DNA of 62,100 nt, filler included, from Sluysia triapertura (lineage: Eukaryota): NCBI GenBank assembly GCA_046118255.1. It is 4 parts of 4 records of this genome, joined end to end, with 100 filler letters (N's around TTAATTAATTAA, not from the genome) between each part and the next. Parts side by side here need not be neighbours in the genome. Positions count along the whole stretch, not along the records: positions 26,950 to 49,691 come from JBJNIA010218473.1; 3 more parts are not named here. One strand, given 5' to 3'. Below, piece after piece: positions 658-49,791 of the stretch. How positions within the stretch are numbered: the first letter of the stretch is position 1; the number at the start of each line of letters is the position of its first letter. The notes beneath the pieces are model-generated. The model made no database searches and was not told the DNA's origin. It saw only the letters and a list, made by a program, of their open reading frames with translations. The position numbers and the translations under genes are program-made.

Positions 658-886
658 GGCTAGAAAAACAATAAAAGAGAACTAAAAATAGTAGCGAATA
701 AAGTATTACTGCTCTCAATTAGAAATCATTATTATGCATAATTAAAAAGTAGACAATTAAACAGTTAAATACAAAATTTTTCCAGACAATATATAATAAA
801 AATCTAGACGTAAAAGTTTTAAAAGTTCCTATACCCAATTATCAATAGATCGGTCTCAAAAAAACAAAGTACAGACAATTTTTAGT

Positions 887-2362: not shown

Positions 2363-4066
2363 CAGTAATTTCGTCACGAAAAGTAAATAAAATCTTGCAA
2401 TCAGACTCAATGTACGAATAAATGACAAATGTAAGCTTCTTTATCCGGACATCCTTTATACACATTACTTTATTTTCCGGATCATCATTTACAAGATAAA
2501 ATACATTAAAATAAAATTTGTTTTTAAACAAAATTTCACGAATATTCCACATCCTTAATATTATCAATTTATGTCTACAAGGAAGAAAATGGTGTTACAA
2601 TTAAATGATTAATTATAAATTATAAATCGTCTAGAAAAAAATATTGCGATAGATTAAGGTGTTTGGAAAAATAAAGATTCCGTGATAAAATTTGTATCAT
2701 TCCAATATAATAGTGGATGTTCCAAAAAATGGAAAACTGTGAAAAAAGCCAATCAATGATAAGATAGACAACGCAATTTATCAATGGTTTTTACAGAAAT
2801 TAAGCATTGATCAACCTATCACGGGCCGGTTATTGTGCGAGAAAGCTTTATATTTTAACGAAGAAATTGAAAATAATGAAAACTTTAAAGCCAGTGGAGA
2901 GACGAAATATGAGAATTAGAAATCCATGGAGAGAAACTTTCATAAGATTTTGCTGCATCAGAAAAATTCAAAACTGATTTTAATTTATTTATTGTACGCG
3001 AGAAATATGACAGTCTGGTTTATATTGAAAAGCTCTTCCTAACAGGTCTCTGACATCAAGAAATGAAGATAAGGCTCCTGGACATAAAGTTTCTTTAGTG
3101 GTATGAGGTAACTCGAATGGACGTCATCAGCTCCCATTGGTTTAAAACCCGTGTTTTTTTCCAATAGTCCACACCAGTCAAAACAGAGGATGGATGAATT
3201 CTGCTACATTTATTCATTGTTTCAAAAAGTTTTTCATTCGTATAAACATTTCATAAAGGTTTTGGAAAAGTTGGCAATGTATTATTATTATTATTATTAG
3301 ATGTTATTATTATTGTTGTTATTGTTGTCACACCATCTGAAGATGTTGTAAAGTAATGTTTCTTCAACCAAATGTTACATCAATCCTTCAGCCAATTGAC
3401 GAAGGTGTAATTTCTACGGTATTAAGGAATTTTTCCAAAGTTTTGATTGCATGATGATAATGAAGAAACTTATTTCCAGCTTTCTAAAGTAATTAGTTTG
3501 AAAGATTGTTGCTGGTGGTAGCTGAAGAATGGAATATGGTGGCTCATATGCATCTTTACTGCGTTGTTGGAACAGACTAATGGTTGGAAATGATGTTGAG
3601 AGTAATTGTAATAAGATATGTGATATTAAAGACGCAGAGGATAATTTATTAGGCTTGGTAAAAGGTGTTCCAGCATCATATGACTGTAATTTACTAGATG
3701 TTAGAGTGATTCTGGGTTTCAAGCGTTAAATTGTGATGAAATTGCTGAACTTGTTGGTAATTATAATAAATGTTATGATGAGACATTAATAGGTGATGAA
3801 CATGAAGTGGAAAGTGATACATCGAGTAACACCGCACTAGAGATGGCTCTACGTTGCTTCGTAGCACTAAAAAGTCGGTTCCAGTGCAATAATTTTGTTT
3901 AAAAATATTCGGATATTCCTCATTAAAGAAAAAATCAATAACAGGCTATTTCAATTAAGGATTTTATGTTTTCTGTTCGAATTTATTTATTACTCTATTA
4001 TTCAATTTTTTTTCTTATCCGGATCATCTCTGGTCCGAAGTGATTCAGATAATAGGAGTTTCACTG
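2363..4066 (+). mobile_element. Decayed pogo/Tigger (JRKL/TIGD-like) DNA transposon
   Basis: TA|CAGT...ACTG|TA ends; frameshifted transposase with CENP-B HTH (IDNAIYQWFLQK...PITGRLLCEKAL...FKAS) and DDE_1 pieces (KALPNRSL, KAPGHK, GWMNS, FLQPNVTSILQPIDEGVI). Confidence 0.85.
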
Positions 4067-14005: not shown

Positions 14006-14105
14006 NNNNNNNNNNNNNNNNNNNNNNNNNNNNNNNNNNNNNNNNNNNNTTAATTAATTAANNNNNNNNNNNNNNNNNNNNNNNNNNNNNNNNNNNNNNN
14101 NNNNN
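14006..14105. other. Artificial scaffold-concatenation linker (N44-TTAATTAATTAA-N44)
   Basis: Exactly 100 nt; core has stop codons in all six frames; identical to linkers at 26850 and 49692. Confidence 0.97.
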
Positions 14106-14700
14106 CAAATTAGTAAAGGTTCATTTAGCTTGAACCTAAGCAAAATCAATTAATATTTAAAACGGTTTGTATAACCAAACCGGAGTAAAATCCTTCATAT
14201 CATATTTTTAAAATAATATAAAATCATATAAAATTACAAAATTAACTGCCCCTAAATTGTATTATTGATATTAATTGTGATTTAATTTATTTAGTTAATC
14301 TTTAGTGATTTATAGAACTTGATTATTACATTTTGGAAAAAACCTTTTGTGACCTTTATATTAATTGTTTTTGAATATAACCTATAAAAGACTCAAGTAG
14401 AATATTATTAACCGATTAATACATTATTTGAACATTAAAGCAAAAGCTTTCTAAACCTCCATTTTTTAAGTCATTAACATAATACTACCTTATTTAAATT
14501 TTTAAAGCATTAAAGTGAAGAATCTTTTGTGACCTCCATTTTATTTTTAAGTCAGAAAATCCAACGGTTGGCCATTAAGTTTGTAAGCCCAATACGTTGG
14601 TGAACTCACCATTTTAAGTTTTATTCTCCATATATACTTACATTTCTTGCAATTTTATAATAGATTAAAATAATTAATTTATTGCAACTTTGTAGAATTA
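14106..14700 (-). mobile_element. Partial LTR, same family as 30453-31274
   Basis: Reverse complement of ~14557-14625 (GTGAGTTCACCAACGTATTGGGCTTAC...GGCCAACCGTTGGATTTT) is nearly identical to ~30546-30597. Confidence 0.65.
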
Positions 14701-23408: not shown

Positions 23409-23448
<40 letters not shown>

Positions 23449-23810
23449 GTTATAATAATAATATATTTATATTGCGCTCATATCTACTCAAAAGCGCTTA
23501 AGGTAAATCATTTACCATAATACTTCTGAAACAGAAAGAACTTTGCCTTTTTAAATATTTTATAATCTTCAAGTAATTTGACATTCTCTGGTAACTGGTT
23601 GTATATTTTTGAAACTTAAACGGTATACAACTTATCACCTGGTTTCTGTATAGGTTATTATGCCTCTATGAAATATTCATCTGGGTTTCCAAATTTTTTA
23701 TTATTTCTAAAAGATATTCAGGACATGCGAAATGTAAGCATTTGTAAATTATTGTAATGATTTTGAATACTATTCGTGCATTTATTGGCAACCAATGCAA
23801 TTCCTTACAT
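23385..23810 (-). mobile_element. 3' end of an L2/CR1-group LINE with (TTA)n tail
   Basis: Minus strand encodes KIYNQLPENVK (ORF2 C-terminus) followed by AAGCGCTTTTGAG...GCGCAATATAAAT stem-loop and a TTA microsatellite; second copy at 39034-39421. Confidence 0.75.
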
Positions 23811-24425: not shown

Positions 24426-26849
24426 CTGGAATTAATTTGTTTATTCTTGTACAGTTTATTTAATTTAATCTCAACATTAATTATTAACTTTTTAAAAAAC
24501 TAATAAGTAATAATAAAATTTAATAATTAATAGACAACGATATAAATAAACAATTACATGTTACTTATCTTTCGTACATAACTTTTATAACAGTCTACTG
24601 ATTTTATTACAGAGCTGGTAACCAAGTTCAGGTTAAATTAGAGATCGAAATAAGGCAATTTAAATAAATAGAAAATAAACAATTATAATGAAAGTATGTC
24701 CAGTGACATTGGATAATGAACCGCAAAGGGTTTGTATACATTATACTTTAGAGCACGATAATATTATTGATTGAACATCAATATCTCTATAAATTCACGA
24801 ATAAAGATTAACATACGATGCAAGTAAAAACGATTTATTGAAAATTTTAACTAATATTTCTTTGAAAAAGCAATGTTTTACCTTGGAAATGTTGACAATG
24901 TTAGAAAAGGTAATTTCTATATAAATGGTGTCGAATTAGTATGAANNNNNNNNNNNNNNNNNNNNNNNNNNNNNNNNNNNNNNNNNNNNNNNNNNNNNNN
25001 NNNNNNNNNNNNNNNNNNNNNNNNNNNNNNNNNNNNNNNNNNNNNNNNNNNNNNNNNNNNNNNNNNNNNNNNNNNNNNNNNNNNNNNNNNNNNNTTTTGT
25101 GAAATATACTTTTGGATTGATTCTGTCTTTAGATTTTCCGTCTTTTAACTCAAATGTTTTTTAATATACAATTCTTAGTTTATTGTTAAGCTCTCTTTTA
25201 TGATTTTACTTAAGACTTATTCTCCTCTCTAGTTTTGATGTATAAAACTAATAATCTTTTATTTAATGTTTATCTTTATACTCTAAATATTAAATTCTCT
25301 TTTGGATTTTATTGTAATATAAATCTAACTCAAAAATTTTCTAATATACAAATCTCTTATTAGATTACTATTGAAATCTCCTGATAATTTTAATTTCGTT
25401 TATTCAAGACTTATTCGCTTTAATATTACATTGATTTAGTATCAAATTCTCTTTTTCTTTAATCTTTATTTGGAAGCTTAGTTCGGTCTTTGTCTCCAAT
25501 CTTAAAGATGGAAGTGCTAAATTGGAGTTCTATAAACTATTATTTTAAATCTTAAAAATCCCACTTCCAAAGCCCTAGTAATCAACAAATAATAAGTCTT
25601 TACTTAACAAAAGATATATTAATAACTATAAATACAAACTATAAATGAATATACTTCAAATTTTGTAAAGTTTCTTTTGTATTTATTTTAATTTTATGTA
25701 GTTTATTTATTCTGAAAATTTATATCATGTAATTTACGTAGGAAAATAATAAAATCAAATAGTTATTAAAATCAAATGTTGTTCATCAAAAGATTTACCA
25801 ATATCAAATGTGTCTGAATCCCTTATTGCTTACCACGATTAATATTAGCAGATAGTTTTTGGCTTATCGGAATTTAATCAGTATTACTCACGAAGTTTAT
25901 GTTGTCAAATAGTTCTTAGTCAAATGGTATTTAATTCGTCAATATCATGTGTTATCTAATAATCAGTGCACCAAAATTGAAGAGTACAACGTTTATCGAT
26001 TTCAATATTATGTCGATGTTAATTTCTTTTATTGCAAAAATTTTGTTTTTTTTCAATATCTTTTCAGACACGTATGCATAAAATCTGTACATAAATTTTT
26101 ATTTGTTATTTTCCAGCGTACAAAATTATTGTTACTACACAAAATTTTTTTATTCGTAATTTATCATTTTCTACGTGCAAAATTTAATATTTATTAAGAA
26201 TTTTTTTCTTATAATTATTTAGAAAATTACAAATTTAACAAACTTAATGCTTCCATAAAATTAAACATTCATATGTGCATTCAATATTCATATATTTTAA
26301 ACATTTCCTTTATTCATAACTACTTACTAACACAAAACAAAATTCATACAATTTATCAGTAATATTCAATCTTTTTTTATCTAGCGCATTTTTTGGATTT
26401 CTTTATATTTAAATAATTCATTATTTGACATTCAAATATTTGCAATGGCTCATCAAGATTCAACATTCATATTATCTTACTCATTATTCATACATCATTA
26501 ATATTAATTATTAATTTATAATTATTCAAACATTCATTGTTTTCAAGTATTCATTTATTAACATAATCAAACAATTATTTTTCAAATATTCATTTATCAA
26601 TATTTTAACAATTCATCATTCATTTAGTTTCATTAACAATCATTCATTATTTCATACTGATATTCGATCATCCAGCAAAATCTCATTCATTAACTTTATC
26701 ATCATACTTTATTTTTACATTATTATTAATATCACAATATTATTACTGTTATTACTGTTTGTTTTGTTTTATATAACTCCAACTTCGATTACCCCGATGA
26801 TTCGGAAAACATTTGTAATATTACAACGGTTCCTCATTTAAATTTAATT

Positions 26850-26949
26850 NNNNNNNNNNNNNNNNNNNNNNNNNNNNNNNNNNNNNNNNNNNNTTAATTA
26901 ATTAANNNNNNNNNNNNNNNNNNNNNNNNNNNNNNNNNNNNNNNNNNNN
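26850..26949. other. Artificial scaffold-concatenation linker
   Basis: N44-TTAATTAATTAA-N44. Confidence 0.97.
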
Positions 26950-27403
26950 ATCTCGAATAATTCACAACATTCACTCAAAAGCTATCTCTTCAAACAAACC
27001 ACAACCACAATATACAATACACAAATTATAAACACAATGACACCATTCAACACCGTTAACAAATACCTCAGAAATAGAAAACATTTACATTAAAATCTTT
27101 AACAAACTACACCAAACTAAATTTACTTAATTTACACATATTCATCATCAACATGTATTCTTAATAACATTATAATACGTTAAGATTTATTTTGTAATCA
27201 TCGTTTAAAACTAAAGTAATTTCAACCTTTCACTAAGTATATCAAACTATCACATTTAAGGCTTAAATATTATTTTTAAGTACAAACACTCAATAAATTT
27301 CAATAAGTTTTTCTAACATTCTTCGTTTCAATTACAACTCGATTCATTCCTATTTCATTTAAAAATAAACAATTAAGCTTTAAACGATTCATTATCTAAA
27401 CAA

Positions 27404-27460
27404 GAAGCAACAACGATAATAATAACGAGACGTACTATACCTCGTTATCATTGTTTCTTC
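27404..27460. repeat. Spaced inverted repeat IR0, cassette copy B
   Basis: GAAGCAACAACGATAA/TTATCATTGTTTCTTC (14/16, 25-nt spacer) plus inner ATAACGAG/CTCGTTAT. Confidence 0.7.
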
Positions 27461-27640
27461 ACAGTATTTCATAAGTTTTATTTCTTTTATTTATTTTATA
27501 TGTCAGAAGGTAAAGAAATATAACGAAAAAAGATCGTGTAGAAGTTTCAAAGAGGATTTTATGCGATCTTTATTTAATAATAATAATAATAACAATGTTA
27601 TTATTGTTATTATTGTCATTATTATCACTGTTTTTAATTT

Positions 27641-27790
27641 TTGTTGTCACCTTCATCAATAGTGACACTTAGTCATTCTTTTCATTTGCACGTCTCTATT
27701 GATGATGGTTTAGTACCATAAATTAATCAATTCGTCAAAATCCAATCACGACAAAAATTATACAGAATATTATACCAGTCGTGATTGGAT
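27641..27790. repeat. Double spaced inverted-repeat module (IR1+IR2), cassette copy B
   Basis: ACCTTCATCAATAGTGAC (27649-27666)/GTCTCTATTGATGATGGT (27692-27709), 16/18; perfect ATCCAATCACGAC (27740-27752)/GTCGTGATTGGAT (27778-27790); both spacers 25 nt. Confidence 0.9.
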
Positions 27791-27902
27791 AACCAATGAC
27801 AGCATGTATAAAAATAAAACATTGTTAAGAAAATTAAAAATTAGCAGCTCAGATTATAATTTTCAACTGGATTAAAAAATTATCAACAATCATAAAATTT
27901 TT

Positions 27903-29141
27903 ATGTCTTCAAAGCAGTCTGATACAATGATACTGATAATTGACCAAAAGGTTATGAAAATATCCGAATCTAAATTAGATAAACAATATGTACACGATAA
28001 AATGCTTGATTCTTTTCCTAAAGATGTTATAATATTTCATACTCCAGATAATAAAAAAGTAGCTAATTCAGTACATGAACTAAAAAATGTTGCTAGCGTT
28101 TCACTTTGTGTAGTTTTTCAAGGTTTTATCAATGATAATGAACATAAAGCTTTTAGAAAAGTTCTAAAAAATAAATGTTATAAAAACAGAGAAATAATCA
28201 TTAGTAAATCATTGCCAAACAATCACATTACTAGATTACCGTATTATCATTATTCCTGTAACGAAGATAAAGATAAAAAATATGTGCATTTGATTGCGAA
28301 CTATGTTCCTCAGAATGTTATGCGAATTTTATCTTTTCATAATCGAAATAATCCATGTATGTCTACCATTTATTTTACTAACATTACTAACATTAATGTA
28401 AAAAATGAATTTACGTCAATAGATCTTCCTTCTCATTCCAGAATTTATTCTCAGTTGGCTATCACTAGTCTATCCACATCAAAACAATTAAAATCTTTGA
28501 AGAAAAATAAAGTTTCATTTAACAATCATAAAGAAATTATTTTAAGTAATGAGCACGATGTTTTACTGGGTCCAGACTATATCAATGTTGATCGTCCCTC
28601 GAACACTATCGCTAATGATGACAATAAAATTAACAGTCATGACAATAACAATAATAATACAACTGATGAAAGTGTAAATGGTAACCCAAAACAAAATTTC
28701 GAAAATCGTTTTGTAAAATATGAATTACATCATGATGTGAATCACAATGTTCCTGACAATAATCTACCAGAAGGCTATGAATACGTAAAGTCAATTATTA
28801 CGATCTCAAAAATAAAAGCTGAAAAAGAAGCGAAAGATTTTTTCAGCAATTTAATCTATTCTGAAGTATGTAAGTTGATATGCAATGAAAATTTTGGTGA
28901 AAATCCACATATTGATCATCTAAAAGCAGTATTTTCAACGGTAAAAAACTTTCAGTATTATTATTATTTGGCCAAAACTTTATCAATAAGTTATGGCGAT
29001 TATCAAGTGGAATTAGACTACGGAATATGCTCGTTAGATGCAGAAAAACTAGGTGCAGATAATACAATGAATATACTTGTCAAGCAAGAGTCTATAACTT
29101 TCAGGAAGAACGACATCATTAACGTAAAAATAATTTTGTAA
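27903..29141 (+). CDS. Orphan protein, cassette cargo family member B (412 aa, N-terminal part)
   Basis: Uninterrupted 1.24-kb ATG-initiated ORF 113 nt after IR2; motif homology to copy A and the 9100 fragment; no known domain recognised. Confidence 0.65.
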   Translation: MSSKQSDTMILIIDQKVMKISESKLDKQYVHDKMLDSFPKDVIIFHTPDNKKVANSVHELKNVASVSLCVVFQGFINDNEHKAFRKVLKNKCYKNREIIISKSLPNNHITRLPYYHYSCNEDKDKKYVHLIANYVPQNVMRILSFHNRNNPCMSTIYFTNITNINVKNEFTSIDLPSHSRIYSQLAITSLSTSKQLKSLKKNKVSFNNHKEIILSNEHDVLLGPDYINVDRPSNTIANDDNKINSHDNNNNNTTDESVNGNPKQNFENRFVKYELHHDVNHNVPDNNLPEGYEYVKSIITISKIKAEKEAKDFFSNLIYSEVCKLICNENFGENPHIDHLKAVFSTVKNFQYYYYLAKTLSISYGDYQVELDYGICSLDAEKLGADNTMNILVKQESITFRKNDIINVKIIL

Positions 29142-29200
29142 GTATTAATTTTTGTCTTTTTTGAATTTTCATTTAGTCATCAAACGATTTAGCCGGATCA

Positions 29201-29680
29201 ATGAAGCGCAACAAGAAAAATGGGGTTCAGTATAAAGAAGTTGGAAGGATGATATTGACTTCCAAGTCAAACAAATTAATTGTTATTTTTACAAAACCCA
29301 TTGATGTAATAAAATTTTATGTTAATAGTTCTATATTTTCAATTTGTCTTTTCAAACGTAAAATATACCTTGTATCTCGTGTTGAATTACGTAAACATAA
29401 ATCTAATAACGATAGAACTGTTGATGATTTAAGACTTAGAATAAATAAACTGATAGCTATAAGCATTCAAGCTCGAAATTTATGTAAAATTTATGAGACA
29501 AATAAGTTTGAACATAGTAAAAACTATAAGCAAAGAATGTCGATATATAATAAAGCTATATACATAAGACAACTTATTAATGTCATGACAGGAATTAATT
29601 ACGATGTAATAGGCCATCTTTTAAAATTCCATCCAAATAATCATGAAAAAACTTTTATTAAATTCTTAGATAAAAAATAA
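29201..29680 (+). CDS. Downstream part of cargo gene B (probably joined to the previous ORF through a short intron; degraded continuation to ~30000)
   Basis: The 60-nt gap has GT donors and a pyrimidine tract ending tttag; AGSMKR and IKFYVNSS align with GGTMKR and INFYIYSS in the single ORF of copy A. Confidence 0.55.
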   Translation: MKRNKKNGVQYKEVGRMILTSKSNKLIVIFTKPIDVIKFYVNSSIFSICLFKRKIYLVSRVELRKHKSNNDRTVDDLRLRINKLIAISIQARNLCKIYETNKFEHSKNYKQRMSIYNKAIYIRQLINVMTGINYDVIGHLLKFHPNNHEKTFIKFLDKK

Positions 29681-30452
29681 ACTTGTCAAACTAGTCTTAA
29701 ATTTAAATTTACATAACAAATTCACACCCTCCAAACCTACATCATCCTCAAATTGTTATCAGGAGTATTACTCACAAATCATGGCAAGTCTCAATACATC
29801 ATAAAATGGTGTCAAAAGTATTACTACTCAAAATATGGTACGGATCATTCCTCCATAAGTCATTATTTAATTTTAAAGTATTTTTACTCATAGTCCAATA
29901 TAATGACGCTGATGTTATTTTAACTTTCTGTTTACCAAAAAATGTACGTATGCATTGCATACCATGCGAGTCCATAAAATTACAAAAAATTAACCCATAA
30001 AATTACAAAGTTAATTTTTTCATTAAACAGATTTATGCAAAAAGTCAGAAAAGTAAAACAATTTTCATCTAACGTATTACTAGAAAATAATTAATGTAAT
30101 TTACACTCGAGTCTACTGGACACGACTGGTATACAGAAGGTAAATGTATATTCATTGACATTTTTAAGTGACACAGAATTCTATATGACAAATATTCATC
30201 AATTCACGCAAATACTTACTACCTTTAGTTTTATTTCTGTGAGAAAAATTCCAACATGTTTAGTTTATATCGGATCAAAGGTTATTATGCGCATTTTTAA
30301 TACCATTAGTCATTTCATTGTAGATTGTAATTTTATGAAAATTTCAATGAGGATTTTAAAAGCACAATTAAGTTCATTTCAAACCAACTTTCTTTTAACG
30401 GTTTAATCATCTTATTATAGTCATCTTAAGATATAGGGCTAAGTCCTCAACC

Positions 30453-31274
30453 TGTTGTTTGTGCATGTTTGTTTTATTATTCGCCGAGTATACTACTACA
30501 TTACTATGATAAAAGTAAAGTAACAGAATAAAAACTTAACTTAAAGTGAGTTCACCAACGTACTGGGCTTACCTGTTAGGGCCAGCCGTTGGATTTTGTA
30601 AATCAAGGTAAAGTCTCAAAATATGCTAACAGAGCCTTAATGCTTAATCCTACCTAGAGGTAAACTTTATTAATGTATTTTGTAGTGCTAAGATCCTTTA
30701 GTAATTGTCAAACTGAGGTTCTCTGTAAGTTTACTTGAAGATAATATTTAAAAAGAATTGCTTAAAAACTTTAGTGCTTAAAATATAAATGAAAATTGAA
30801 GTTTATTTAGTGATTTTGCGTAGATTCCGTTATATGGAATCGTTGTAACAGATTTTACGTTTCTAGAATTCAATGCTAGCTTCTTCAAAGCAATTGTAGT
30901 ACTGGATTTTAGGAGATTTTGAGACTATAAAAATTAAGAGATTAAATAATTGTAAACAAAAACTGTTATCTTAGTTAGTTGATCACTAATTATAATTTAG
31001 AAATATATTTTACAATGGATCTACTATATGATCCCAATATATTTAATGAGTTTAAGTTTATTTTACGTAGGATATTTAAAAATATCAACCTTAATACAAT
31101 TAAACTAACGTGATTAATAGAATAACAAAATTTCGATTCAAATGGGTAAAAATCTTGAAAAATTGCAACCAAAAGTCTCAGTTAAAAAGTTCTATTAAAA
31201 ATTTATGTTAAATTATGTCTTAATTGTCGATTCTTATATAGTTGTTTTAGTCTGACCTTGGTCAGATTAAAACA
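30453..31274 (+). mobile_element. Solo LTR (822 bp) with 4-bp target-site duplication
   Basis: AACC|TGTTG...AAACA|AACC; homologous partial copy at ~14.1-14.7 kb; hairpin at the 3' end. Confidence 0.65.
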
Positions 31275-31799
31275 AACCAAAAATGGTAATAATTTAAAAT
31301 AATTTGAAATAATAATTTTGGAATAATCACGTTAATCAACTGAAAAATAATAAATTCTTTAATTGAAAAATATTTAAAAAATAATATTACAAAATTATTT
31401 TTACTTTATATTAAATTCCGAAAAAATTAATATGATTTCGAATAATAATTTAAATGATTTACATAAAAATGAAAACCAAATACAAAATAAAAATCAATAA
31501 GTTAACAAAATTGTTATCAAATCAAAATAGTCAATGTTGCATGTATACATTTAATAATTAATCAATGTAATATTAAATCAATGTATGTTTTTATATATTT
31601 ACATATTTAATCAATAACATTGCTATACTATACTACTGTATTTTTTGGCACATTTGGCTAATACATGAAAGATCATAATATCTTATTAAATATAATAAAA
31701 CATAAACATTAAAATCATTATTTGTTGTTGAAAAAAAGATAAATTCCGTTAAAAATACAAAACTGTCAAATAAACTTATTAATTAAATTATCTGTTCAA

Positions 31800-32092
31800 T
31801 CAAGAACGTATAATTAACTCACTTCTTCTAGTGTAACATTTTGTGGAGTTTGGTAGGTATCCGACAATACACCAAACACAAACTTCATTTGTATCTTTAC
31901 CAATTAACAATAAAGTGGAAGCATTAATTCTCTCAGGTAATTCTCCATTATGACTGAGAATTATTATAGTAGTTTGATTTTTGAGTAATTCATAAGCAAA
32001 AGGAATATTTGACGTACAATATAAACTAACTCGTGTAGTATTAACATATATACTACTATCGTTTGGCTCAACCACAGAAATAACAGCTTCAT
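31800..32092 (-). CDS. Terminal exon, small Cys-patterned probable glycoprotein, paralog 1
   Basis: Phase-1 AG acceptor; ...VSLYC...VCVWC-x10-CYTRR; several N-x-S/T sequons. Confidence 0.65.
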
Positions 32093-34008
32093 CTTTAATA
32101 ATAATAATGATAATAATTTAATTATACAATTTTATTATTATGTCACATTCATAATATATTATTTTGTGGCCAAATCTAATGTATAGCAAAATTCAACATA
32201 AATTAAATCTAATACAAAATTGGCGAGAGTCGATTATACAATAGGTACTATTAGTACTCTAATATTGACAATTATATGCAAGATATCTTTGCCTGAGATT
32301 TTATATTAAAAATACACTTCGTGTGAGTCCCTAAAAATCTTAGTCTTACACACTTCAGGCTAAGTTATAAGTAGCAAAAATAATATTTAATGGGGGTTTA
32401 TATTAATAACTAATGTTTATTTTAAGTAATCAATTACCTATTAAACCTTTGATTGATTATTCAACAAAGAGTATTGACTTATGTTAATACGTATATTCTG
32501 AGTTTAAAGTGAGTTTACTACCGTTTATAACGGTATTATTATATAACGGTTTTATTATATTCTTTAACTACGATAAAATCGGTTTTAAATATATTCAGAA
32601 AATTTGAGATTTTAAGTAAGATTTTTCTACCGAATATAAAATCGGTGCCTTAAAGTCAATAAAAATTATAAATTTTAATTAATGACAAATTCTTGGAAAA
32701 TATATTTTATCAAATTAATTTACAATCAATTAGAATTGATGTTAAAAATTAAAATCAAATATAATATAAAATATACAATTAACTAGATTAATTTATAACA
32801 TATTCAATAGATTTTAAAAGAATATTTAAAAATAAATTAAAATCGTTATCAAATTTTTCAAAATAATTTACGTGAATTTTAAGGTTCTATTTTAAGTAGA
32901 ACAAACTACAAAAAATTAACTAATCTATCAACAAAATTATATTGAAGAGATGAATAAAGTTTTTTCCACCAAATACAAAATCAATAAGTAAAAATTATTC
33001 ACCAATTACTTACAAGCAAGTTTTGAAATAAATTTAAACAAATAAATTTTTTTTAACTAATAATATGTTGAGAGATATGAATACTATTTATAGTTATTTT
33101 TCAATAAAACAAAATCAATATTATTAATGTTATTTTATATAATTATTATTCAATTTCTATTGGATGATAGAAATAAAATAGCATCAGTCTAATTATAATA
33201 GATAATTTAAAAAATATGCTGTTAGTTATACAATGTGATTCACCGAGAAATTTTATTCACGAATCATTTAAATCGACGCCATTTATCATAATGGAAAACT
33301 TTTCATATTAGTTCCATTAGCAGGAAAAGTGATCAATTCTTTTCAAGGAGAATATTTATATGATAAATTAAATTAGTAAGTTTATTCTTGTTTAAGGCAA
33401 TAGTACTCGTAAGGTAATTATAATAAAATAGACTTAACTTAAGTTTTGTAAATTATTTGCCTGATGTTTTAAGGGACAAAATAAATTTTTAACCTCATTA
33501 ACATAAAAAATTAAAGGCCATGTTAAGGCTTTAATTATAAAATAATAAATTAATCTATAATAGTTGTCTTTAATTTCTATTCTTATTACTGCTAACGTTT
33601 AGTTATATTTTTATTAATGAGGATTCGTTTTGTTCAGTTATTACGATTAATAGGTAAAGTGAGATACATTAAATAAATTACTTGATAATTAAGAACCTCT
33701 AATTAAGATAAAACGTTGCATTTACTAAAAGATAAAGTGTAGCCTAATTTTTCATATTAATTATGCTAAGATTTGTTTAACTATAGTTACAGGAACACTA
33801 TGTTTACGATGTAAGACGTTTACTGTAACCGGACCCCTGCTCAATTTTTTTGAGGCAGGTTAAAAAGTAAAAATACCACAGCATCATCATTTCAATCATA
33901 CTTAATATTTGTTTTCCAAGTGAAGCACAAATACGACATGGAACTGTTTTAATCAGATCAACGACATTGTTATTACTGTTGTACTTATTAAGATAACATA
34001 ATACATAT

Positions 34009-34286
34009 TTATTGTCTAACTATACCTTGTCTAGTATAACAAGCTACTGCCGGATCCAGAATTTCATGGGCACATGTTACACAAATTTGTTCCTCATTAT
34101 AATTTTTATGCTGCACATCTACAGGTGTGTGTAATGTATATTTGAAGTCAATAAAAATGTATCCAAATCCAAAAATTTGTTTTAATTGCAATAAAATTTC
34201 TGGACTAATTAAACAGGTAATATTATGTTTCAGTATTGGCCAATAATTTGTAATGTTAGGATACATGTGAAGTTTTACTGGTTTGC
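34009..34286 (-). CDS. Terminal exon, Cys-patterned paralog 2
   Basis: Phase-1 acceptor; ...NITC...FGFGY...ICVTC-x10-CYTRQG. Confidence 0.7.
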
Positions 34287-35549
34287 CTAATTATTCAATA
34301 ATAAAAATTATTTACAAAATTTTAATATTAAATAATAATTAACAATATGATACACATTAATCGATGCTAGAATTATTATCCAAATAGTTTTTAGTTATTA
34401 AATAAATAAATTCAATTAGGATAATAGATTTGTTTTTTGCATAGCTAGAAATTAATTTCAAAATCACTTTTATTTGAACAATCTTACATAAAGTTTGTTT
34501 CAATAATTTCGGTTTCATATATCTTGATATTATTGTTATTTATAATTTTTTAATTTATAAATTTATAATTATTTAAAAGTTTTTATAATTTAATTTTTCA
34601 AAAAATAAATAAATTATATATATAATTAATAGTTATGCAAAATTGTAAAATTAAAAATAATAATAATATTGTAAATTGAATTTTTATAAAATGTTATACC
34701 ATTCCAATAAAAAATACAAAATGACTAAGATGTTATTTGTGTATTCAATTACTTGCTCCAACATTAAAATTAGATATTCATAAATTGAAAAATGTATAAC
34801 TATATTATTAATATTAATAATTTTTAATATATTAATAAGACTATTACTTAATATACTTTGCGTGATTTAACAGTTTAATTTTTTTACATGCAAACCGTAT
34901 TACTCACGATAGAATGAAATCTTTGGTTTAAGGAAGTAGATTCAAATCGGAGAATTATTGAAATACGATTCAAAAGCATTGGACGACGATCTTCCTGATA
35001 TAAAACATTTACAAGCATATAAGAAAGATACAACATTAGCGGAAAAAACACTATGAAAAAGTAAAAGAAATAATTTCCGAAACTGATCAAAATCAAATGA
35101 ATATTTGTCAATGGATAGATTAGCAATTTATTGTTAACGCAAAAGTGTAGGCACAGGTTAAATGTAGATGTATAATCATTCTTAAAAATAAACTTAAAAA
35201 CGTTTTGAGAGAAGACAAACTTTAATGAGAAAATTCTTTCAAAATATTCACTAATTTCTTAATCTAAATTACAAAAGTGCTTGTTTTAATGTTGTTAATG
35301 GTAGATAATACAAGAAGTCTTTTATCAACAAGGTATTGCATATCAATTACACCACGAATTGACAACCTATCTCATTACTTTATATCATTGCATCATATTG
35401 CAAAAGAGAATATTGTTTTTCTTTAGTACATGAATTGTATCACCTATACTTTCCATTTATTATATAAATGAAGATAAAACTTATCACTTTTCCGGTAAAT
35501 TTTTGTAAACATTTAACTATAATCTGTTTGAAAGTTTAAATTTCATTAA

Positions 35550-35742
35550 CATGTTCGCTACCAGCGTCGCATATAATATGACATCAGTTCTTGCTTTTGA
35601 GTTCGTAGTCGCAAATGTGTGGCATGTCCACACTATTGTTAATAAATAATACTGATAAGGTAGACGCGCCACACATTTGCGAGGACGAACTCAAAAGCAA
35701 GAACTCATACGACGCAAATATGCGACGCTGATAAAGAACTTG
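35550..35742. mobile_element. Fold-back MITE, piggyBac-like (193 bp)
   Basis: ~80-bp imperfect inverted arms (e.g. AGTTCTTGCTTTTGAGTTCGT/ACGAACTCAAAAGCAAGAACT); flanked by TTAA and TTAG, consistent with a TTAA target duplication carrying one mismatch. Confidence 0.75.
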
Positions 35743-37791: not shown

Positions 37792-38063
37792 CTAACGAAA
37801 TGGTTCGTAACACTTTTTCTTTGATGAAACATTTTTTCCACTACAAACAAAACAAATAGTCCGGTTGTCTTTGCCAGTAATTCTTAAATATGTATTATTT
37901 ATTAACGTATATGCATGTGATGTTATATTTGTAAATTTATAATTAGTAATTAGTAAGGTTAAAAAGAATTCAGTAGGATACAGGAGACAGTAAATATCCA
38001 TTGTTTTATTAAAAATGAAAATTTCTGATGTCCAAGGAAATATAACGAATTTTGGAACAATAC
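37792..38063 (-). CDS. Terminal exon, Cys-patterned paralog 3
   Basis: Phase-1 acceptor; ...MDIYC...ITGKDN..ICFVC-x10-CYE; five sequons. Confidence 0.65.
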
Positions 38064-39033
38064 CTATATTTGAAATATTAATATTTGTAGAACTAAATTT
38101 TTCAGATAATAATTTGATTTTTCACCGCTAGTATTACGAAAAAATTAAGTTTTTTTGGATACAAAATGAATACAACATATAGAAATTGTTTTGATTGTTA
38201 TTGTTGGATTTGTTGAAAATTAAATACTTTAATTTATCGTCGTTTCGGTTTTAAAGAAGAAATGGATTGTATCATTATAAATCAGTCGAGCAATTAATAA
38301 GTTGATTTCTTCCACCTGTTCTGGTTGCATAAAGTCGAGACAAAGTTTGAAATTAAGAATTTTAGTTTGAAGAGGTTGTATGTTCAGATTCAAGAAATAA
38401 TGGAGTTAGAAGATATTCTTCAGTGACACATAAGTTTCTACCGTCAGAAACTAATTACCGCTAAATTGAACGTACGTAACACGTATCATATAGGAAATTG
38501 AAATTTTCATATCTACAAAACAAGTTCCTTCAATTTCTTAAGAAATACACTCGTGGGTATTATGTAAAATACTTCTAGGCAGCAATTACCTGAAGATTAA
38601 CAAGATGCTCAACAATAATATATACAGTTTCGTAAGCAAATAACATGTACAAGGAAAATTACAAAAATTTGTTTGAAATCTAAAAAATACGATTTCTAAC
38701 AATGCTGAACAAAACCATGCATCCATCAATGTTATGTTGCAGCTACCTAAGATTTTATTACTTTAAATTATCGTAGTAAATTTAATTATTTAACTATTTA
38801 GGACATGAACAACTTTTTAAATGATCTTGAGATAACAATACAGCCATTGCTCACTATTCAAATATTTTCATTCATATCATATACTAACTGCTTTCTTTGC
38901 TTTTAAATTATTCTAATGGCATTAAAAAGATAATCTTTTATCCTTAATTTATATAGATTTAAAAAGATTTGATATTGACCTCCTTTCTGGTATTTTTCGT
39001 CAATTATAGTTAAATCATAGTTTCAAAATCTTT

Positions 39034-39421
39034 TAATAATAATAATAATAATATTAATAATAATAATAATAGTAATAATAATAATAATATATTAATTTAT
39101 ATTGTGCTTATATCTACTCAAAAGCGGTTAAAATAATATTTCTAAAACAGAAAGAAATTTGCATTTTTCTTAAATATTTCATAATCTTCAGTAATTTGAC
39201 ATTTTTTGGTAACTGGTTGTATATTTTTGAAACATAAAAGGCATACAACCTATCACCTGTAAATTCTGTATAGATTATTATGTCTCAATGAAGTATTCTT
39301 CCTGGTTTCCAATTTTTTTATTATTTCTAAAAGATATTCAGGACTTCCGTAATTTAAGCGTTTGGAAATTATTGTCATGATTATATTCTTGCTTTTATTG
39401 GCAACCAATGTAATTACTTAA
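39034..39421 (-). mobile_element. 3' end of an L2/CR1-group LINE, second copy
   Basis: Collinear and highly similar to 23385-23810. Confidence 0.75.
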
Positions 39422-39762: not shown

Positions 39763-40037
39763 TTATAAATTTAAATTCAAACCTCTTCTTCTAAAACATT
39801 TTTCAGCAACAGGTAATATTTCATGTAAACACTTTACACATATTTTACTTTCGTTTTTAGTTTTGTAACGTATCCTCAATGGATTAAGATAAGTATAAGT
39901 GAAATTAACATATTTAAATCCATAACCGAATAATTTACTTTCTAATGATTTTTCATTTAAAGTACAGCTAATTTCCAGATCAACCTTAGGTAAGTAATAA
40001 TCAATATTTGGTGCAAGGTTTAGAAAAACTTTTAAAT
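39763..40037 (-). CDS. Terminal exon, Cys-patterned paralog 4
   Basis: Phase-1 acceptor; ...EISC...FGYGF...ICVKC-x10-CFRRRG; clearly closest to paralog 2 (PNI..Y.P, HEIL). Confidence 0.7.
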
Positions 40038-40219
40038 CTATATAAAAATAAGTTATTAGAAGAATTGAATTATTTTCAGCAAAAAAATTTAAAATAACAC
40101 ATTTCAATACCTTAAATTAAGTTTTAAAGCTTATAGATGCACCTAACTTTTACTTGAGTTATAGTTTCCGAAGGTTATCCAACTGGACTTTATTTGGAGA
40201 AAATTATAACTCCAGTTTT

Positions 40220-43300: not shown

Positions 43301-44021
43301 GAAAATGGTGTTTTATGCGTATATGATTAATAATTTTCTCACTTAATAATTAGGTTTAAATGTTTCTTTAAATGTAGTAAGCTCTTATATTTTCAGATCT
43401 CAAAATTTTCAATCTAGTTCCTTTTCTTAAAGAATGATTATCGCTGAAGTTATCGAAACCTTTTAAATTCTATAATCACTAAATTTGCTAATAAGTTCTT
43501 TAAGCTTTTTACTACTTTTAACGGAAAACTTTTAATAATTATCTTTCGATACAATTTATTTATTACTTTTATTTAAAAATCTTTTGATTTTAATAAAACC
43601 TTATCTTTAAATGATAACAAAACAAAATCCACTTAGTAAGTTCTATTACAAAACAAATTCAAATAGTAATATTAACGTATATCAGTATTCTATTACAAAG
43701 GCTCAATATAACAATGTGAAAATTTTTAAATCAACGTATATTCTATTACAAAGGTTCAATATAACAATGTAAAAACTTTTTATGAAACACAAAACGAATT
43801 TTTTATATAAGTAAAAAACAATATAATAAAATATATATATTTTTAATTTAACGTCTGATTTTGACCCAGAAGTTACGTGTGGGTTTCTCTAATAATAGTA
43901 CAAAGAATTTAAGTCGTATTTTAAGACCGTTAAAGAATCGGGTCGAGAAACTTACAAATAAAAGCTTACTGAATCGTAAAACCAAATTGAAAAGATCCGG
44001 AATTGTGAACTGGAACGTAAG

Positions 44022-44118
44022 AAACCAAATCGTGTTTTTATCCAAAAAACCAAATTACGTTTTATCCAAAAGACCAAATTACGTTTTATCCAAAAAACCA
44101 ATTTACGTTTTATCCAAA
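44022..44118. repeat. 24-bp tandem repeat, ~4 copies (AAACCAAATTACGTTTTATCCAAA)
   Basis: Seen directly; ~50-60-bp tandem duplications nearby at ~43675-43780 and ~44450-44570. Confidence 0.88.
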
Positions 44119-46189
44119 TGAACGTCAAAAATTCTGCTCCAAATTAAAACCAAAAAATTGTAACACAATTGAAATGTCTATAAATCTGTCTCTATGAATT
44201 CTAGATTATTAACTCTAGAATGTTTTGATTTATCTTGACTTTATATACCTTTTGATGAGTATACGTTAAAATAAATATCCTATTTTTAAAATAAATATAA
44301 CATAAATAATAGATTTCCGTTTTATTTTCGAAATTAACTAAATAATATTTCGATAAAATTTTCGTTCCATAAAATAATATAAATAAATTTTTATATATCT
44401 GTTTTGGTTATAAACAAAAATTTTATAAATAATATTATTATGAATAAAAATACTAGAATAAATTTCCGTTTTTTGAAATTTTATTATTTATAAATGAGTA
44501 ATAACATAAATACTAGATTCCGTTTTTAAAATTTGATTATTTATAAATGAGTAATAACATAAATACTAGATATTTTATTATTATTTAATTTTATTATTCA
44601 ATAAATTCATTATTATTTACAAAATTATTACTGAATTTTTTTTAATACAATTATTATTCACAATTTTATTTTAAGATAATATTATTTACAATTAATTAAA
44701 TTAATTAAATATTGTTTAATTTAATAATTTCGTGAAAAATATATACATAAAATGTATAATGAATTAACATTAGAATTAGTGAGAACTTTTGAATTTTATT
44801 AGTTTACCTAATGTTGAAATGTTTGATGCAGATAACGTAAAAATTAGTTATTTATTTAGTTTTATAATCTAAAATTAAATTTATATATGTTATAATACCT
44901 AAGTATAATTAAAGTATATATTAAATTGATGCTCATTAAGATACCAATTCAGACATGTTTTTTAAATCAACGTGCGACGACGCACGGTTGATGAATGTCG
45001 TATTGCATAAAAACTTTCTATATAAATTAAATTTGGTTTTTGATTAGTTTTACGTTTATTTTAAGTTGACATATTATATCAATGAAAAAATGATAGTGTA
45101 ATAATGATATTAAATTTTGATTGCGTTATGTTGAAAAGACAAATCCCATTTTCTTTGGGTAATTGGAAACCGACAGAAATTACTGTTGAAATTTAATTAT
45201 TGAAATTTGTCATCTTGTGACCAACTAAAAGAAATTAATAATTATAACAAGTTATTATTTCCATTTACCAATTTTTTATTTCCTAATCAACTATCTAAAC
45301 GATCTAACTTTTGTAATAAAACCAGAACAAGAGAGCTATACAACAATGAAAACTTTGAAGAGAGCTGACTCAACACAATTGTGATAAACATGGTGATTGA
45401 GAAATTATTTTTAGTAATTGACTAAATGTTATAAGCAATATTTTTATTGTTAAGATTAGTGATTTGCGTTTTTATTATTTTATTACTATTAAATTCGGGC
45501 AGCAATATTTATTGTATTGTGTTTAGTTATTAAACAGGAAAATTCATTATCTTTTTGTAAAATTCTTCCAGTACCCATGAAATTCAAAATAATTCTTTAA
45601 ATATGTGTAAATTTTTAAACGCGCTCTTAATACGGTCAACTTAATAAAGAAACCAATAATATTGATACAACCAGTATAAAGTCCAATATAATTAACTAGA
45701 AATAACTAGAAATTTTGACTCAAAACCAAACCGAGCGGGAAGTCAATCCAATAAAGTAAATCCGCAAAACAAACTAACGGGAAGAATTTCAACAAGGTTT
45801 AAATAAGTTTAATAAAATGAATAACATTCAACAAAGTCCACTGAACCAAACCAATTATTATTATTAATTTGATCAATAAAATCAAATTCAAATACGCAAA
45901 CAATCCTAAGCCATCCACAACAAAAGTAGCCAAATTCTACTAAAATAATTATCGAACCAACAAATTAAGATCAATTCAATGTCAAATAAGAAAATTTAAG
46001 ATGGCACGTACCAAAAATTATAACATTAAGGTTTTCCGCTCAACAAAGGTTCACTTACTATGATTTGCGTCATATAAATTTTAAATCCTACAATATATCA
46101 AGCGAGCCACAATTTCAATTAGTCATCGTTTACCTTGTAGAACCGACGATGATTCAGATTTTTCACTGCAAAGAACAGCGGAAGCGCTC

Positions 46190-46340
46190 ATCAATGCAGT
46201 TTTTCCTAGTTTACATCTAGTTCACCTAATACGTGGTTCATAGTCATTGAGGCTAATGTCAAAACAAACTCCATAAAACAGCAAAGTGCCAAATTTAATG
46301 AAACACTGGCAATCAAATTTGATACTAATATGTATTCAGT
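46190..46340 (+). mobile_element. Ty3/gypsy gag N-terminal relic
   Basis: FP../FTSSSPNTWFIVIEAN resembles the P.F....P..WF...EA.F gag motif; frameshifted. Confidence 0.45.
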
Positions 46341-48027
46341 CAACACTGATCAAACAAATCATCATTCAGCAAATTTGAGAGTTTGGATTTGTTAATTAAT
46401 ATTTTATTCGAATTATGGCCTCTAATGGCATTTAAGATGTCTTCTAAAAAATAATTTTGATATTTTTCTTAAATTGGAATTACTTCTGTGTCATTTTTTT
46501 GGTTTTATTAGTTTCAATTTAATGTACTGTCAACATGAGCTTTAATTAAACTTACTTTTCTATACAACCTCTATGTATCACTGTCTGTTTAACTTTATTT
46601 GAGATTTTTTCTTAAGATTTATGTATTTACTTAAATTTTCCTCATCTAAAGTTTTATTGGAATTAAATTTAATGCTGGCTTGAGTCTTAATGAACTGAAG
46701 TATGTTGGGAGTAGTGAAGGATAAAGGTCAATATGAGGGTTATGACTCAGGATAACGGAATATGGTGAATGTTATTAAAGATAAGGTAATATGATGAACT
46801 GTAATGGTAAAATAAGTATGAAAAATACTTGAATTAAAACAATAAATAATAAGAATAAGTTCAACATTATTAAAGAATTAGGATGAGGTATTATGATGAA
46901 CTGCAATGATAAGATAAGAATAGAAAATACTTAAATTAAAACAAAATAATGAGAAATATGAATAAGTAAATCTGTACAAGGTTTTATTTGTTAACATATT
47001 AAAGTACATTTATTAATTAACTTAATTCAAATTTGTTTAATTTGATTGTGGTGTCACACTTTAACACAACATACATATCATCCATCATCACCATCAATTA
47101 CACCAACATACAACAGATATTTCACTCACTATCATCATCGACCACATAACCCTCGTCACAAACAAATACTATACCAAAATAAAACGCACTTACAACATCC
47201 GCAGTATCACATCTTACCTCTCATAAACCACAAACGCATAATAAAATCTAAGTGTGATTACCAAAAGAAAATCCCTACGCCCATATTGATAAGTCAATAA
47301 AAATGTTTGCTCATGATATAATTATATTGCATTTAGTGTGTAATATTGAGTTTTATTAGTATTTTTAATGATGAAGTATATAACGTATATATAACGTAAA
47401 AATTAGTTATTTTAAAATAGGAACAAGGGTTAGTAAAATGTTCATTATTGATTACACTTCGTATTGATGCAAGTGCTAAAATTTAAATAAGTTGTCACCC
47501 CTAGTCATGTTTTTTAATATTAAAAGATTTGTAAAAAAGCAGAACTATTTTTTGTAATTGTTTTCTTGTAATATATTGTCTGCCATGAATAACTATATTA
47601 TAAACAATGTTTGGAACAAATAAAGCCTTCATAATTGTATCCCACCTCAAGTATGAAGTTATCTTTGTACATGTTAAGTATGCTCCTAATCCAGCCCAAA
47701 TCGCATTAGAATAAAAATACTAACAATAATTTACAAAGGAAATTTGATCATTAAGATAGAAAAAATGCTTGGTTAAAAAGTTGTAAAAACATCAACACCA
47801 CCGTCATTCTTCAACTAGTGACCCTTATATCGCTTAAGGTACTACCCAATTGTATTTTTGTGGTAAAGGTTTTTTTATTAATTGAATTAAAGATTTATTA
47901 ATTTAAAGTTGAGTTAATTAAATTAACTGCTATTCTTCATTCATATGAAAAATTTCGTCAATCGATTATAAAAAATTCGGTTTATATAATTCTTAAACGA
48001 ATAGTACAAATAATATATTACAAATAA

Positions 48028-48411
48028 CTAAAATGCAAATTTAGCTCGAATTTTTTCTAAATTCTTCGCAATATCGTTTGGTTCTTTACCAAGTTCCGAA
48101 CTGATGCTTCGTTGTTTAGCAAGATCCAACGTGGTGAACACTTCACACAGATCACCATCAATAACTGATTTGCAAGGAAAATAGTATGAACGATAATGTA
48201 AATGATCTCGACCAACCATACTCAAACACTCGGCTCTCAAATGCGATTCTAAAGTTTGAAAAAATTCGTATGTGTCATTTGATTGAAATGGAACAAGAAT
48301 ACCAATAGCACCGTTAATTGTTGTGTATAATAATGTTTCCAAGCCGCTTGGATTCAGTGACGCCTTTTGAATCGATGTTACCAGTTCACCGACATAGAAG
48401 TGGCAGATTAC
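48028..48411 (-). CDS. SF3B3: Splicing factor 3B subunit 3 (SAP130), last exon
   Basis: VICHFYVGE...LLYTTINGAIGILVPF...GRDHLHYRSYYFPCKSVIDGDLCE...KFAF*; ag acceptor at 48412-48413. Confidence 0.95.
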   Translation of the reverse strand, partial: VICHFYVGELVTSIQKASLNPSGLETLLYTTINGAIGILVPFQSNDTYEFFQTLESHLRAECLSMVGRDHLHYRSYYFPCKSVIDGDLCEVFTTLDLAKQRSISSELGKEPNDIAKNLEKIRAKFAF

Positions 48412-48765
48412 CTATATAATAATAACAATTTTAACAAAAATACCATCAATATTTTAAAAACAAGTTGGTTAGTGAGTGGTGCACTTTAGAAGCAGCACAC
48501 ATACAATTTTAATATTTCAAAAACAAATTCGATATAAATACTTTTGAGGCTTAACATAATTAAAATCTGCTCGATACTTTTTTAATAACATTGAATAAAA
48601 TTTTAAATTTTCTTTATTTTAGTATCAAAATTTATATTTATTTTATTTCCAAAATGCTTATGACAATAAAAACAGTTTGTTAGAGGAGACTGAAATGGCA
48701 TTATGTTTGGTGCTTGATTGCTTAATATATTTGAAAATGAGTCAACGAAAAACAATATCACATAC

Positions 48766-49086
48766 TTCCACTTTTTGACTGCAGCCTCCTAAATGCCCAC
48801 GTTCCCACAATGCTTTACTACCACTAGGATCTTCTTCTACATCATCGGTGACATCCTTGGGAAGTCTCAGAACAGCAATATTTCCGAACTTGTCGGCTGC
48901 CACGGCCGTGTCATTGTCCAGAATACAAACATGATTTACCCAGCGTGTTATAGTGTCATCTGCGAATATTACAAGTTGGTTCTCTGCTCGACGATGATAT
49001 TTCACCCAAAATATGCTGTCTTGCATATCGGCAACAACAATACGACTTTTGTACGATTGAATAGTGACGATTTTGTACGGAAAATT
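48766..49086 (-). CDS. SF3B3: SF3B3 penultimate exon
   Basis: ENQLVIFADD...ADKFGNIAVLRLP...DVEEDPSG..ALWERG; cag/gtatgt boundaries, 321 nt. Confidence 0.95.
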
Positions 49087-49289
49087 CTGTGGAAAAAATA
49101 ACAATCATATTTCACTTTTAATATAAATTTATATTCAATTAAATCATTTAAATCAAAATTTAATATTAATCGAATACATTTTTGCTACAATTTGATGTAA
49201 AATGATTATATTTAATATTTGTAATAATAAAAATATCTGCAGATGAATTATTGTGTCAATCGTAAATCAAAGCTCACCAAATACATCAA

Positions 49290-49500
49290 ATATCTAGTCG
49301 TGCAACGGCAGTGGTTCATTATTTTATGAAAATTTTCGATTACAGTTCGACCTAATTCTGGTTCATTTTAAGTAATGGCTTCGATTATATTCTCTTTGAG
49401 ATCGTTTATTGCTTTCGGATTGTTGCCGCAAACGTTATCTTTCAAGAAACTCTAAAGGAAGAAGTTCAGAGGTTTCAGAATGCATGATTTGGGAGGGACA
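49290..49500 (-). mobile_element. Tc1/mariner (maT-like) transposase C-terminal relic in an SF3B3 intron
   Basis: PPKSCILKPLNFFL*SFLKDNV..NNP..INDLKENI resembles WPPRSPDLTPLDFFLWGYLK..VY...P; a hAT/Charlie-like end CAGTGATTCTCAAC follows near 49615. Confidence 0.6.
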
Positions 49501-49691
49501 ATTATTGAAACTACATGTTCAAGTTATTATAACAGATTTTAATGCTTTTAGATTGAACTTATAAGTTTAGTCTATTAGTTAAAAACCGAATTTTGTAGAC
49601 TTCTTCGTTTATATCAGTGATTCTCAACCAATGTGCCGCCGAATTTTAGTCTTATGATTATGTTCACATTTGTATTCTATTCTAGTCCAAA

Positions 49692-49791
49692 NNNNNNNNN
49701 NNNNNNNNNNNNNNNNNNNNNNNNNNNNNNNNNNNTTAATTAATTAANNNNNNNNNNNNNNNNNNNNNNNNNNNNNNNNNNNNNNNNNNNN
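49692..49791. other. Artificial scaffold-concatenation linker
   Basis: N44-TTAATTAATTAA-N44. Confidence 0.97.

Follow-up and report, generated by a model that had tools for sequence, protein, structure and literature searches.

A front half of GSK-3 in a long open frame of a probably multicopy repeat unit in Sluysia triapertura

What kind of protein is encoded by a 412-codon open frame that lies, with a second and shorter frame, behind a high-copy repeat in the genome of Sluysia triapertura? This locus, copy B, was analysed within a 62,100-nucleotide (nt) stretch of DNA (the window) that joins four parts of assembly GCA_046118255.1; a second locus with a related upstream module, copy A, stands at the start of the window. 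The initial annotation had assigned both to an old, functional orphan protein family in which no domain was recognised. We found that the N-terminal third of open reading frame 1 (ORF1) of copy B is not orphan, since it matches the kinase GSK-3, a known host family. We consider it somewhat probable that copy B holds a captured, kinase-dead 5' fragment of GSK-3 which a mobile repeat amplified as its cargo, probably through RNA and for the most part as a passive passenger. The coordinates of all features of the two copies are collected in Table 1.

The GSK-3 N-lobe, hinge and helix D were recovered in ORF1 by four methods. A search against 1.84 billion protein representatives gave 181 matches at E ≤ 0.001 (best 2.7e-12); all of the matches listed fell in the N-terminal half of ORF1, and 143 of the 150 listed carried the GSK-3 KKVLQ/KNRE motif. 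Pfam Pkinase was present in 30 of 30 matches scanned, and GSK-3 beta is the name given to the best-scoring cluster. The PDB search paired the residues given in Table 1 with GSK-3beta (best E 1.8e-14), and a profile built from 26 full-length matches detected the N-lobe stretch at E 2e-20, with none of the rest of the 1183 window ORFs scoring better than E 0.55. HHalign returned a probability of 97.9 for the GSK-3 N-lobe. The alignment to GSK-3beta/Shaggy is collinear, with 33–37% identity and one single-residue gap. A model predicted from a 50-sequence GSK-3 alignment reached a predicted local distance difference test (pLDDT) score of 72–92 over residues 41–150 and resembled GSK-3beta structures, a fold match that is not independent evidence because the model was built from GSK-3 sequences; it suggests that the predicted domain starts near residue 41. 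Two extensions of the match were considered and rejected: profiles gave no support to residues 1–55 as the GSK-3 N-terminal arm or to residues 170–185 as its C-terminal tail.

The residues that a working kinase needs are altered. All three glycines of the GxGxxG loop are lost (G63A, G65V, G68C), the ATP-binding beta-3 lysine is replaced by arginine (K85R), and the gatekeeper and hinge are changed (L132A, D133N); R96 and the helix C glutamate E97 are retained. The HRD, DFG and APE motifs are absent from ORF1 and ORF2. Because the glycine-loop glycines and Lys85 are lost and no C-lobe was found, the ORF1 product is, judging by its predicted sequence, incapable of active kinase function. The K85R substitution serves as a kinase-dead GSK-3 mutant in the available text of PMC8500522.

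The match to GSK-3 ends at residue 157–158, within two residues of an intron place in GSK-3 genes. At the ..K|V position, 8 of the 37 matches listed as diverging there depart from the usual GSK-3 sequence immediately afterwards, which is the pattern expected at an exon end. We take the end of the match to coincide with an exon border of human GSK-3 as well. Past this point the frame stays unbroken through 254 further residues and leads on to what is probably a second exon, neither belonging to a known family.

Within this extension (residues 159–412), the frame stays open for longer than expected by chance (0 of 2000 shuffles for the last 254 codons). GC content at the three codon positions of ORF1 is coding-like (0.37/0.25/0.23), and likewise in ORF2. 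Residues 160–412 had no homologue at E ≤ 1 among targets of 226–721 amino acids (aa), nor had ORF2 among targets of 280–2000 aa; relatives of ORF1 were absent from metagenome and viral contigs, and relatives of ORF2 from viral contigs. A single-sequence fold of residues 272–412 was unusable (pLDDT 33). Pfam gave no family at E ≤ 0.1 for ORF1 or the two copy A ORFs (A1 and A2) and one sub-threshold match for ORF2, the protein atlas was blank for ORF1 and A1, and Rfam had no match anywhere in the window. Since Pfam and the protein atlas miss the GSK-3 domain, copies of this kind would be filed as orphans.

Both ORFs and the degraded tail to ~30000, as first described, are seen in the sequence. 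The gap between the ORFs had been called intron-like and 60 nt long; intron-like it is, with a T-rich tract followed by AG at 29175–29176, but it measures 59 nt from the ORF1 stop to the ORF2 ATG. ORF2 is probably a second exon. Among short introns (≤120 nt), seven GT–AG pairs preserve a long frame, and the shortest pair that fuses the two ORFs is entered in Table 1 as the candidate intron. An alternative canonical donor, GTAAGT at 29138, is out of frame and leads to a stop five codons past the AG at 29176. In the tail, GC at the codon positions (0.27/0.27/0.39 over 29714–29890) is not coding-like.

Table 1. Features of copies B and A, with positions counted along the window
Feature	Position	Strand	Remarks
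High-copy repeat upstream of copy B	26950–27575	+	part from 27207 on common to copy A
AAT/ATT-type microsatellite tail	27576–27640	+	counterpart in copy A at ~375–480
Hairpin 1, imperfect inverted repeat	27649–27709	.	copy A counterpart at 512–573 with perfect 17-bp arms
Hairpin 2	27740–27790	.	13-bp perfect arms, a CCAAT box in each, 25-nt loop; copy A counterpart at 606–654
Third CCAAT box and TATAAAAA	27793–27797; 27807–27814	+	TATAAAAA ~90 nt ahead of the ORF1 ATG
ORF1 (copy B)	27903–29141	+	412 aa from ATG
GSK-3 N-lobe, hinge and helix D	28068–28376	+	ORF1 residues 56–158 = GSK-3beta 55–158
In-frame extension of ORF1	28377–29141	+	254 aa, Asn/Asp-rich middle, no family known for the sequence
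Candidate intron	29124–29176	+	GTAAAA...TTTAG, 53 nt; shortest pair fusing ORF1 and ORF2 (574 aa)
ORF2 (copy B)	29177–29680	+	frame open from 29177; 159 aa from ATG at 29201
Broken tail	29681–30000	+	in-frame stops; summed contig depth ~400 at 29778–29979
Copy A upstream module	5–695	+	repeat end, tail, two hairpins
Copy A ORFs	800–2187	+	365 aa and 103 aa, frameshifted

Contigs from one DNA run (X1), possibly made from the source sample, were placed on 26950–33000 at ≥80% identity. The 7898 contigs comprised 588 that were at least 99% identical, 1583 at 95–99%, 3305 at 90–95% and 2422 below 90%. Summed contig depth, a quantity that is not equal to copy number, reached 44,000–55,000 at 26950–27353, 6,100 at 27354–27555, ~800–2,500 over 27758–29777 and 408 at 29778–29979, versus 30–120 in the nearby unique stretches at 30182–30383 and 31394–32201; near-identical contigs alone had a depth of 17–45. 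Absent from copy B, but present in other copies at 28716/28717, is a 39-nt GT...AG segment that keeps the frame and is either intron or coding; the other copies also have small indels at 28379–28381, 29152 and 29672. Eleven ORF1 variants stood among the 40 shown of 825 (four synonymous, seven not), each listed one common to 5–23 contigs. The contigs indicate, indirectly, that this organism's DNA run contains numerous diverged versions of the two ORFs, and the unit is therefore probably multicopy.

The proposal of a multicopy cassette sharing an upstream inverted-repeat module is supported by these contigs and by the DNA and the hairpins found in common ahead of both copies. Positions 5–452 of copy A align to 27207–27645 of copy B at 67% identity (E 5.5e-29), and nhmmer carries the similarity on to 695/27848, about 650 nt in all. 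As folded RNA, hairpin 1 of copy B has a z of −4.3 and its copy A counterpart −4.8, and hairpin 2 has a z of −6.1 in B; of 200 shuffles, 0–6 folded as well as the hairpins. The loops of the paired hairpins are large. The arm letters of hairpin 2 differ between the copies, with pairing kept in both. The CCAAT and TATA boxes of copy B lie ~90–160 nt before the ATG and form a candidate RNA polymerase II promoter, by comparison with what we take to be the consensus. The repeat itself was read by eye as the decayed 3' end of an L2/CR1-group long interspersed nuclear element (LINE), on a motif that we presume, unconfirmed, to mark such ends. Two other repeat ends with ATT tails, 81% identical, occur at 23414–23807 and 39034–39420 (−), the first inside a dynein intron, and these presumably also correspond to L2/CR1 LINE C-termini.

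Copy A is a probable decayed relative of copy B. Its ORF1 holds an in-frame 129-nt (43-aa) tandem duplication at 886–1168 (+), 80% identical, and neither the profile over window ORFs nor HHalign detected a GSK-3 domain in copy A. The ORFs of the two copies have no detectable DNA similarity, and their proteins were not linked by tblastn or phmmer. That they form one protein family, as the initial annotation held, is probable, on weak statistics that vary with the parameters: the similarity fails at standard gap costs (A1 against B ORF1, 188 of 500 shuffles; joined ORFs, 125 of 500; tails, 129 of 1000) and passes under cheap long gaps, where z is 3.3–3.7 (0–2 of 150 residue and block shuffles) and six controls stay at z ≤ 2.0. 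The cheap-gap alignment is collinear from start to end, and the four collinear motif pairs noted at the outset all lie at the places implied in A and B. Because upstream DNA is common to both, we regard homology of the two proteins as quite likely. GSK-3 was not matched when A and B were combined into a two-sequence profile. The 43-aa repeat of copy A was tried as the start of an N-lobe, for which it is borderline at best (154–244/5000 for the first 75 aa, 761–959/5000 for the first 100 aa; profile and DNA negative). The family was also described as old and functional, a description that the sequence does not establish: copy A has no ATG at the place matching the start of B, the tail of B is broken, and 11 variants are too small and too biased a sample to reveal selection. 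Just to the right of copy A, at ~2700–3450 (+), lies a decayed pogo/Tc5-type transposase (HTH_Tnp_Tc5, E 1.9e-5; DDE_1, E 9e-5).

Under the account that we prefer, copy B would be a dispersed repeat in fairly intact form, bearing a 5' part captured from the GSK-3 gene of a host. The fragment would have been picked up once and then spread with the mobile unit, most likely via an RNA intermediate, as the 3' cargo of a LINE-type element; we infer this route because a repeat end and tail stand upstream and the 39-nt GT...AG segment of other copies is absent here. The CCAAT/TATA module could provide a transcript of its own. Most copies would probably be decaying passengers, copy A being a more decayed and rearranged one, and any protein made would be non-catalytic, a decoy at most.

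Several findings weigh against this account. In the upstream repeat, translated in six frames with stops read as X, Pfam contained no LINE or transposon family and neither reverse transcriptase nor transposase was detected, the LINE label having been given by eye. Terminal inverted repeats (TIRs) were not found near the ends, with no match longer than 20 nt between 26950–27900 and 29700–31450. There was no right end common to A and B, and the search for a Helitron end yielded one 6-bp hairpin at 29948–29962 without CTRR and none right of copy A. Passage through RNA would be expected to strip out an intron-like gap such as the one kept in B. Moreover, the summed depths are not copy numbers, and depth declines toward the supposed LINE 3' end instead of rising, which fits a subfamily-specific end and not a simple 5'-truncated LINE. 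Faint collinear echoes of a C-lobe in B and A, discussed below, count on the same side. Structures of a Burro long terminal repeat (LTR) element, a Pack-TIR element and a Helitron were considered, and none was found.

Linker-like 100-nt gaps with a central TTAATTAATTAA occur at 14006–14105, 26850–26949 and 49692–49791, and the left end of the copy B unit may fall within the second of these. A third locus at 53000–54750 (+) has a layout like that of A and B: a C/A-rich repeat, a LINE-like 'SLPKEIR' stretch and an ATT tail, followed by hairpins at 53972–54027 and 54104–54170 and a 154-aa open frame at 54286. It has no detectable sequence similarity to A or B.

The main rival, which we judge unlikely, takes ORF1 spliced to ORF2 as a whole, extremely degenerate GSK-3 pseudokinase. 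Some 190 aa would have been inserted where the exons of helices D and E meet, with ORF1 residues 352–407 and ORF2 as the decayed C-lobe, and A and B would belong to a lineage-specific expanded host family of non-catalytic scaffolds or decoys. By eye, these two segments do echo GSK-3 in the correct order (GICSLD/GICHRD, NILV/NLLV, TKPIDV/TTKIDV, DRTVDDL/DSGVDQL, LLKFHP/LLEYTP), and the first echo picks up at the very profile column that ends the N-lobe match. Residues 352–407 faintly recall helix E and the catalytic loop (2/300 and 6/300 shuffles), and ORF2 the C-lobe past DFG (z 2.0, 12/300 shuffles, HHalign probability 0.2). Global alignments placed six of eight GSK-3 queries at 0–9 of 300 shuffles, for a region chosen afterwards. 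When natural units were tested by profile, z was 3.3/2.5 for helix E–DFG, 2.0/1.9 for ORF2 and 2.0/2.7 for the copy A tail, against z ≤ 0.9 in 15 control runs. However, once the region was not preselected and long inserts were allowed, z fell to ≤1.3 for the C-terminal half of B and ≤1.1 for A, which is control-like, and the local test gave 11/150. Two flatworm GSK-3 queries were without signal (173/300 and 87/300 shuffles), and A1 failed on both the helix E–DFG piece (z 0.4) and the N-lobe (z −0.5). HMMER detected no C-lobe among the 1183 window ORFs and HHalign none either. The N-lobe retains 33–37% identity, the supposed C-lobe being below detection.

Duplication without any mobile element, which we rate as distinctly unlikely, would have a truncated GSK-3 duplicate and the adjoining repeat multiplied by segmental or tandem duplication, with the copies as pseudogenes. 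It would account for the lack of element ends and of a mobility enzyme; A and B are in the same orientation, 27 kb apart along the stretch on what was taken as one scaffold, and both A and the tail of B are broken. Against this, raised depth spans the unit and falls to the unique level at 30182–30383, A and B have no sequence in common on the right side of their ORFs, and the 412-codon frame is still open in DNA of 27% GC.

A bolder extension of the mobile-cargo account seems very improbable to us: a flatworm LINE-type element with an accessory 3' transcription unit (two hairpins and the CCAAT/TATA promoter), present in tens of copies, that would express the kinase-dead GSK-3 N-lobe and inhibit host GSK-3 by replacing its N-lobe, as a mirror image of baculovirus PK2. 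In this reading the third locus, alike in layout but not in sequence, hints at an element class with exchangeable cargo. GSK-3 belongs to the destruction complex of beta-catenin, and this pathway patterns regenerating flatworms. If the extension were true, a selfish element would tune Wnt/beta-catenin signalling in stem cells. An old, functional orphan family unrelated to known proteins is scarcely credible, since four methods assign the N-terminal third of ORF1 to GSK-3 and neither function nor selection was demonstrated, even though residues 160–412, ORF2 and copy A found no homologue and A and B align collinearly under cheap gaps. As worded in the initial annotation it is refuted by the GSK-3 match, and just the unassigned part could still form a separate family.

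The host is probably a flatworm, because a tree built from the C-terminal part of 35 SF3B3 sequences places the window in a group of 12 rows, which takes in every one of the nine named flatworms (support 100/99). A free-living planarian would be a guess. Its SF3B3 sits on a long branch beside two records, with 86% identity to P0157, and long-branch attraction is possible. The window has a GC content of ~24% and holds exons of dynein heavy chain and SF3B3 (Pfam), as well as a gene of the RNA recognition motif type that we take to be ESRP/fusilli-like. For dynein, no exon was recognised past the gap at 24946–25094, and the joins may be uncertain. A second unannotated family, represented at 34012–34290 and 39766–40116 (−), has 22 of 53 residues in common, with Cys pairs, and no significant Pfam match; 31803–32117 and 37795–38121 (−) were grouped with it, and these are possibly exons of secreted proteins. 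A long inverted repeat at 35587–35704, with 15-bp perfect inner arms (35609–35623/35668–35682) and longer imperfect outer arms, is a possible miniature inverted-repeat transposable element or hairpin RNA. A short, very high-copy repeat was found by nhmmer at ~30526–30644, 14506–14626 and 58507–58566, with a summed depth of 124,000 at 30384–30585, and another dispersed repeat family occurs at 44769–45230, 47286–47414 and 55949–56438 (70–88% identical, with inverted copies).

Compared with GSK-3beta/Shaggy, a CMGC kinase, ORF1 keeps the N-lobe, hinge and helix D with R96 and E97, whereas it lacks the glycine loop, K85 and a C-lobe, has a changed gatekeeper and hinge, is fused to unrelated sequence and is apparently multicopy. 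No front half of GSK-3 that is kinase-dead, lies in a long open frame and is multiplied in a flatworm genome turned up in the open-access literature searched, though repeat libraries or kinome tables may already list copies. If expressed, decoys of this family could be tested directly as regulators of the beta-catenin pathway; should the copies be silent, annotation is corrected all the same.

Among mobile elements, the pack-type transposons (Pack-MULE, Pack-TIR such as Ssk-FB4, and Helitrons) amplify pieces of host genes and yield chimeric ORFs, according to the available text of PMC8277862 and PMC6431247. Copy B resembles them in having a host-gene piece within a probably amplified repeat and a chimeric ORF; unlike them, it shows no TIR or Helitron end, and its upstream repeat looks retro-element-like. 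Planarian genomes are described as AT-rich and repeat-rich in the accessible part of PMC11410931. They harbour Burro, giant gypsy-like LTR elements with host-like regulatory domains (PMC6431247, in whose available text the word kinase does not occur), whereas no gag, pol or LTR was seen at copy B. The non-LTR telomeric LINEs of Drosophila took up pieces of host genes that promote suppression of host transposon silencing, as stated in the consulted portion of PMC13534243; here, in contrast, a kinase piece that diverged long ago rides along in an open frame, and the assignment to LINEs is unconfirmed.

Truncated beta-catenin-3/4 of planarians are Wnt-pathway paralogues that act as inhibitors (available text of PMC5643146), but these are ordinary host paralogues, unlike the repeat-borne copy B. 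Baculovirus PK2 is a host-derived single kinase lobe that, according to the accessible text of bioRxiv 10.1101/2025.02.05.636571, binds the other half of its parent kinase and inhibits it. PK2 is a viral C-lobe mimic of demonstrated activity, whereas copy B would be a predicted N-lobe in an animal repeat. That mobile elements capture pieces of host genes and amplify them is already known, and so are inhibitors made of half a kinase.

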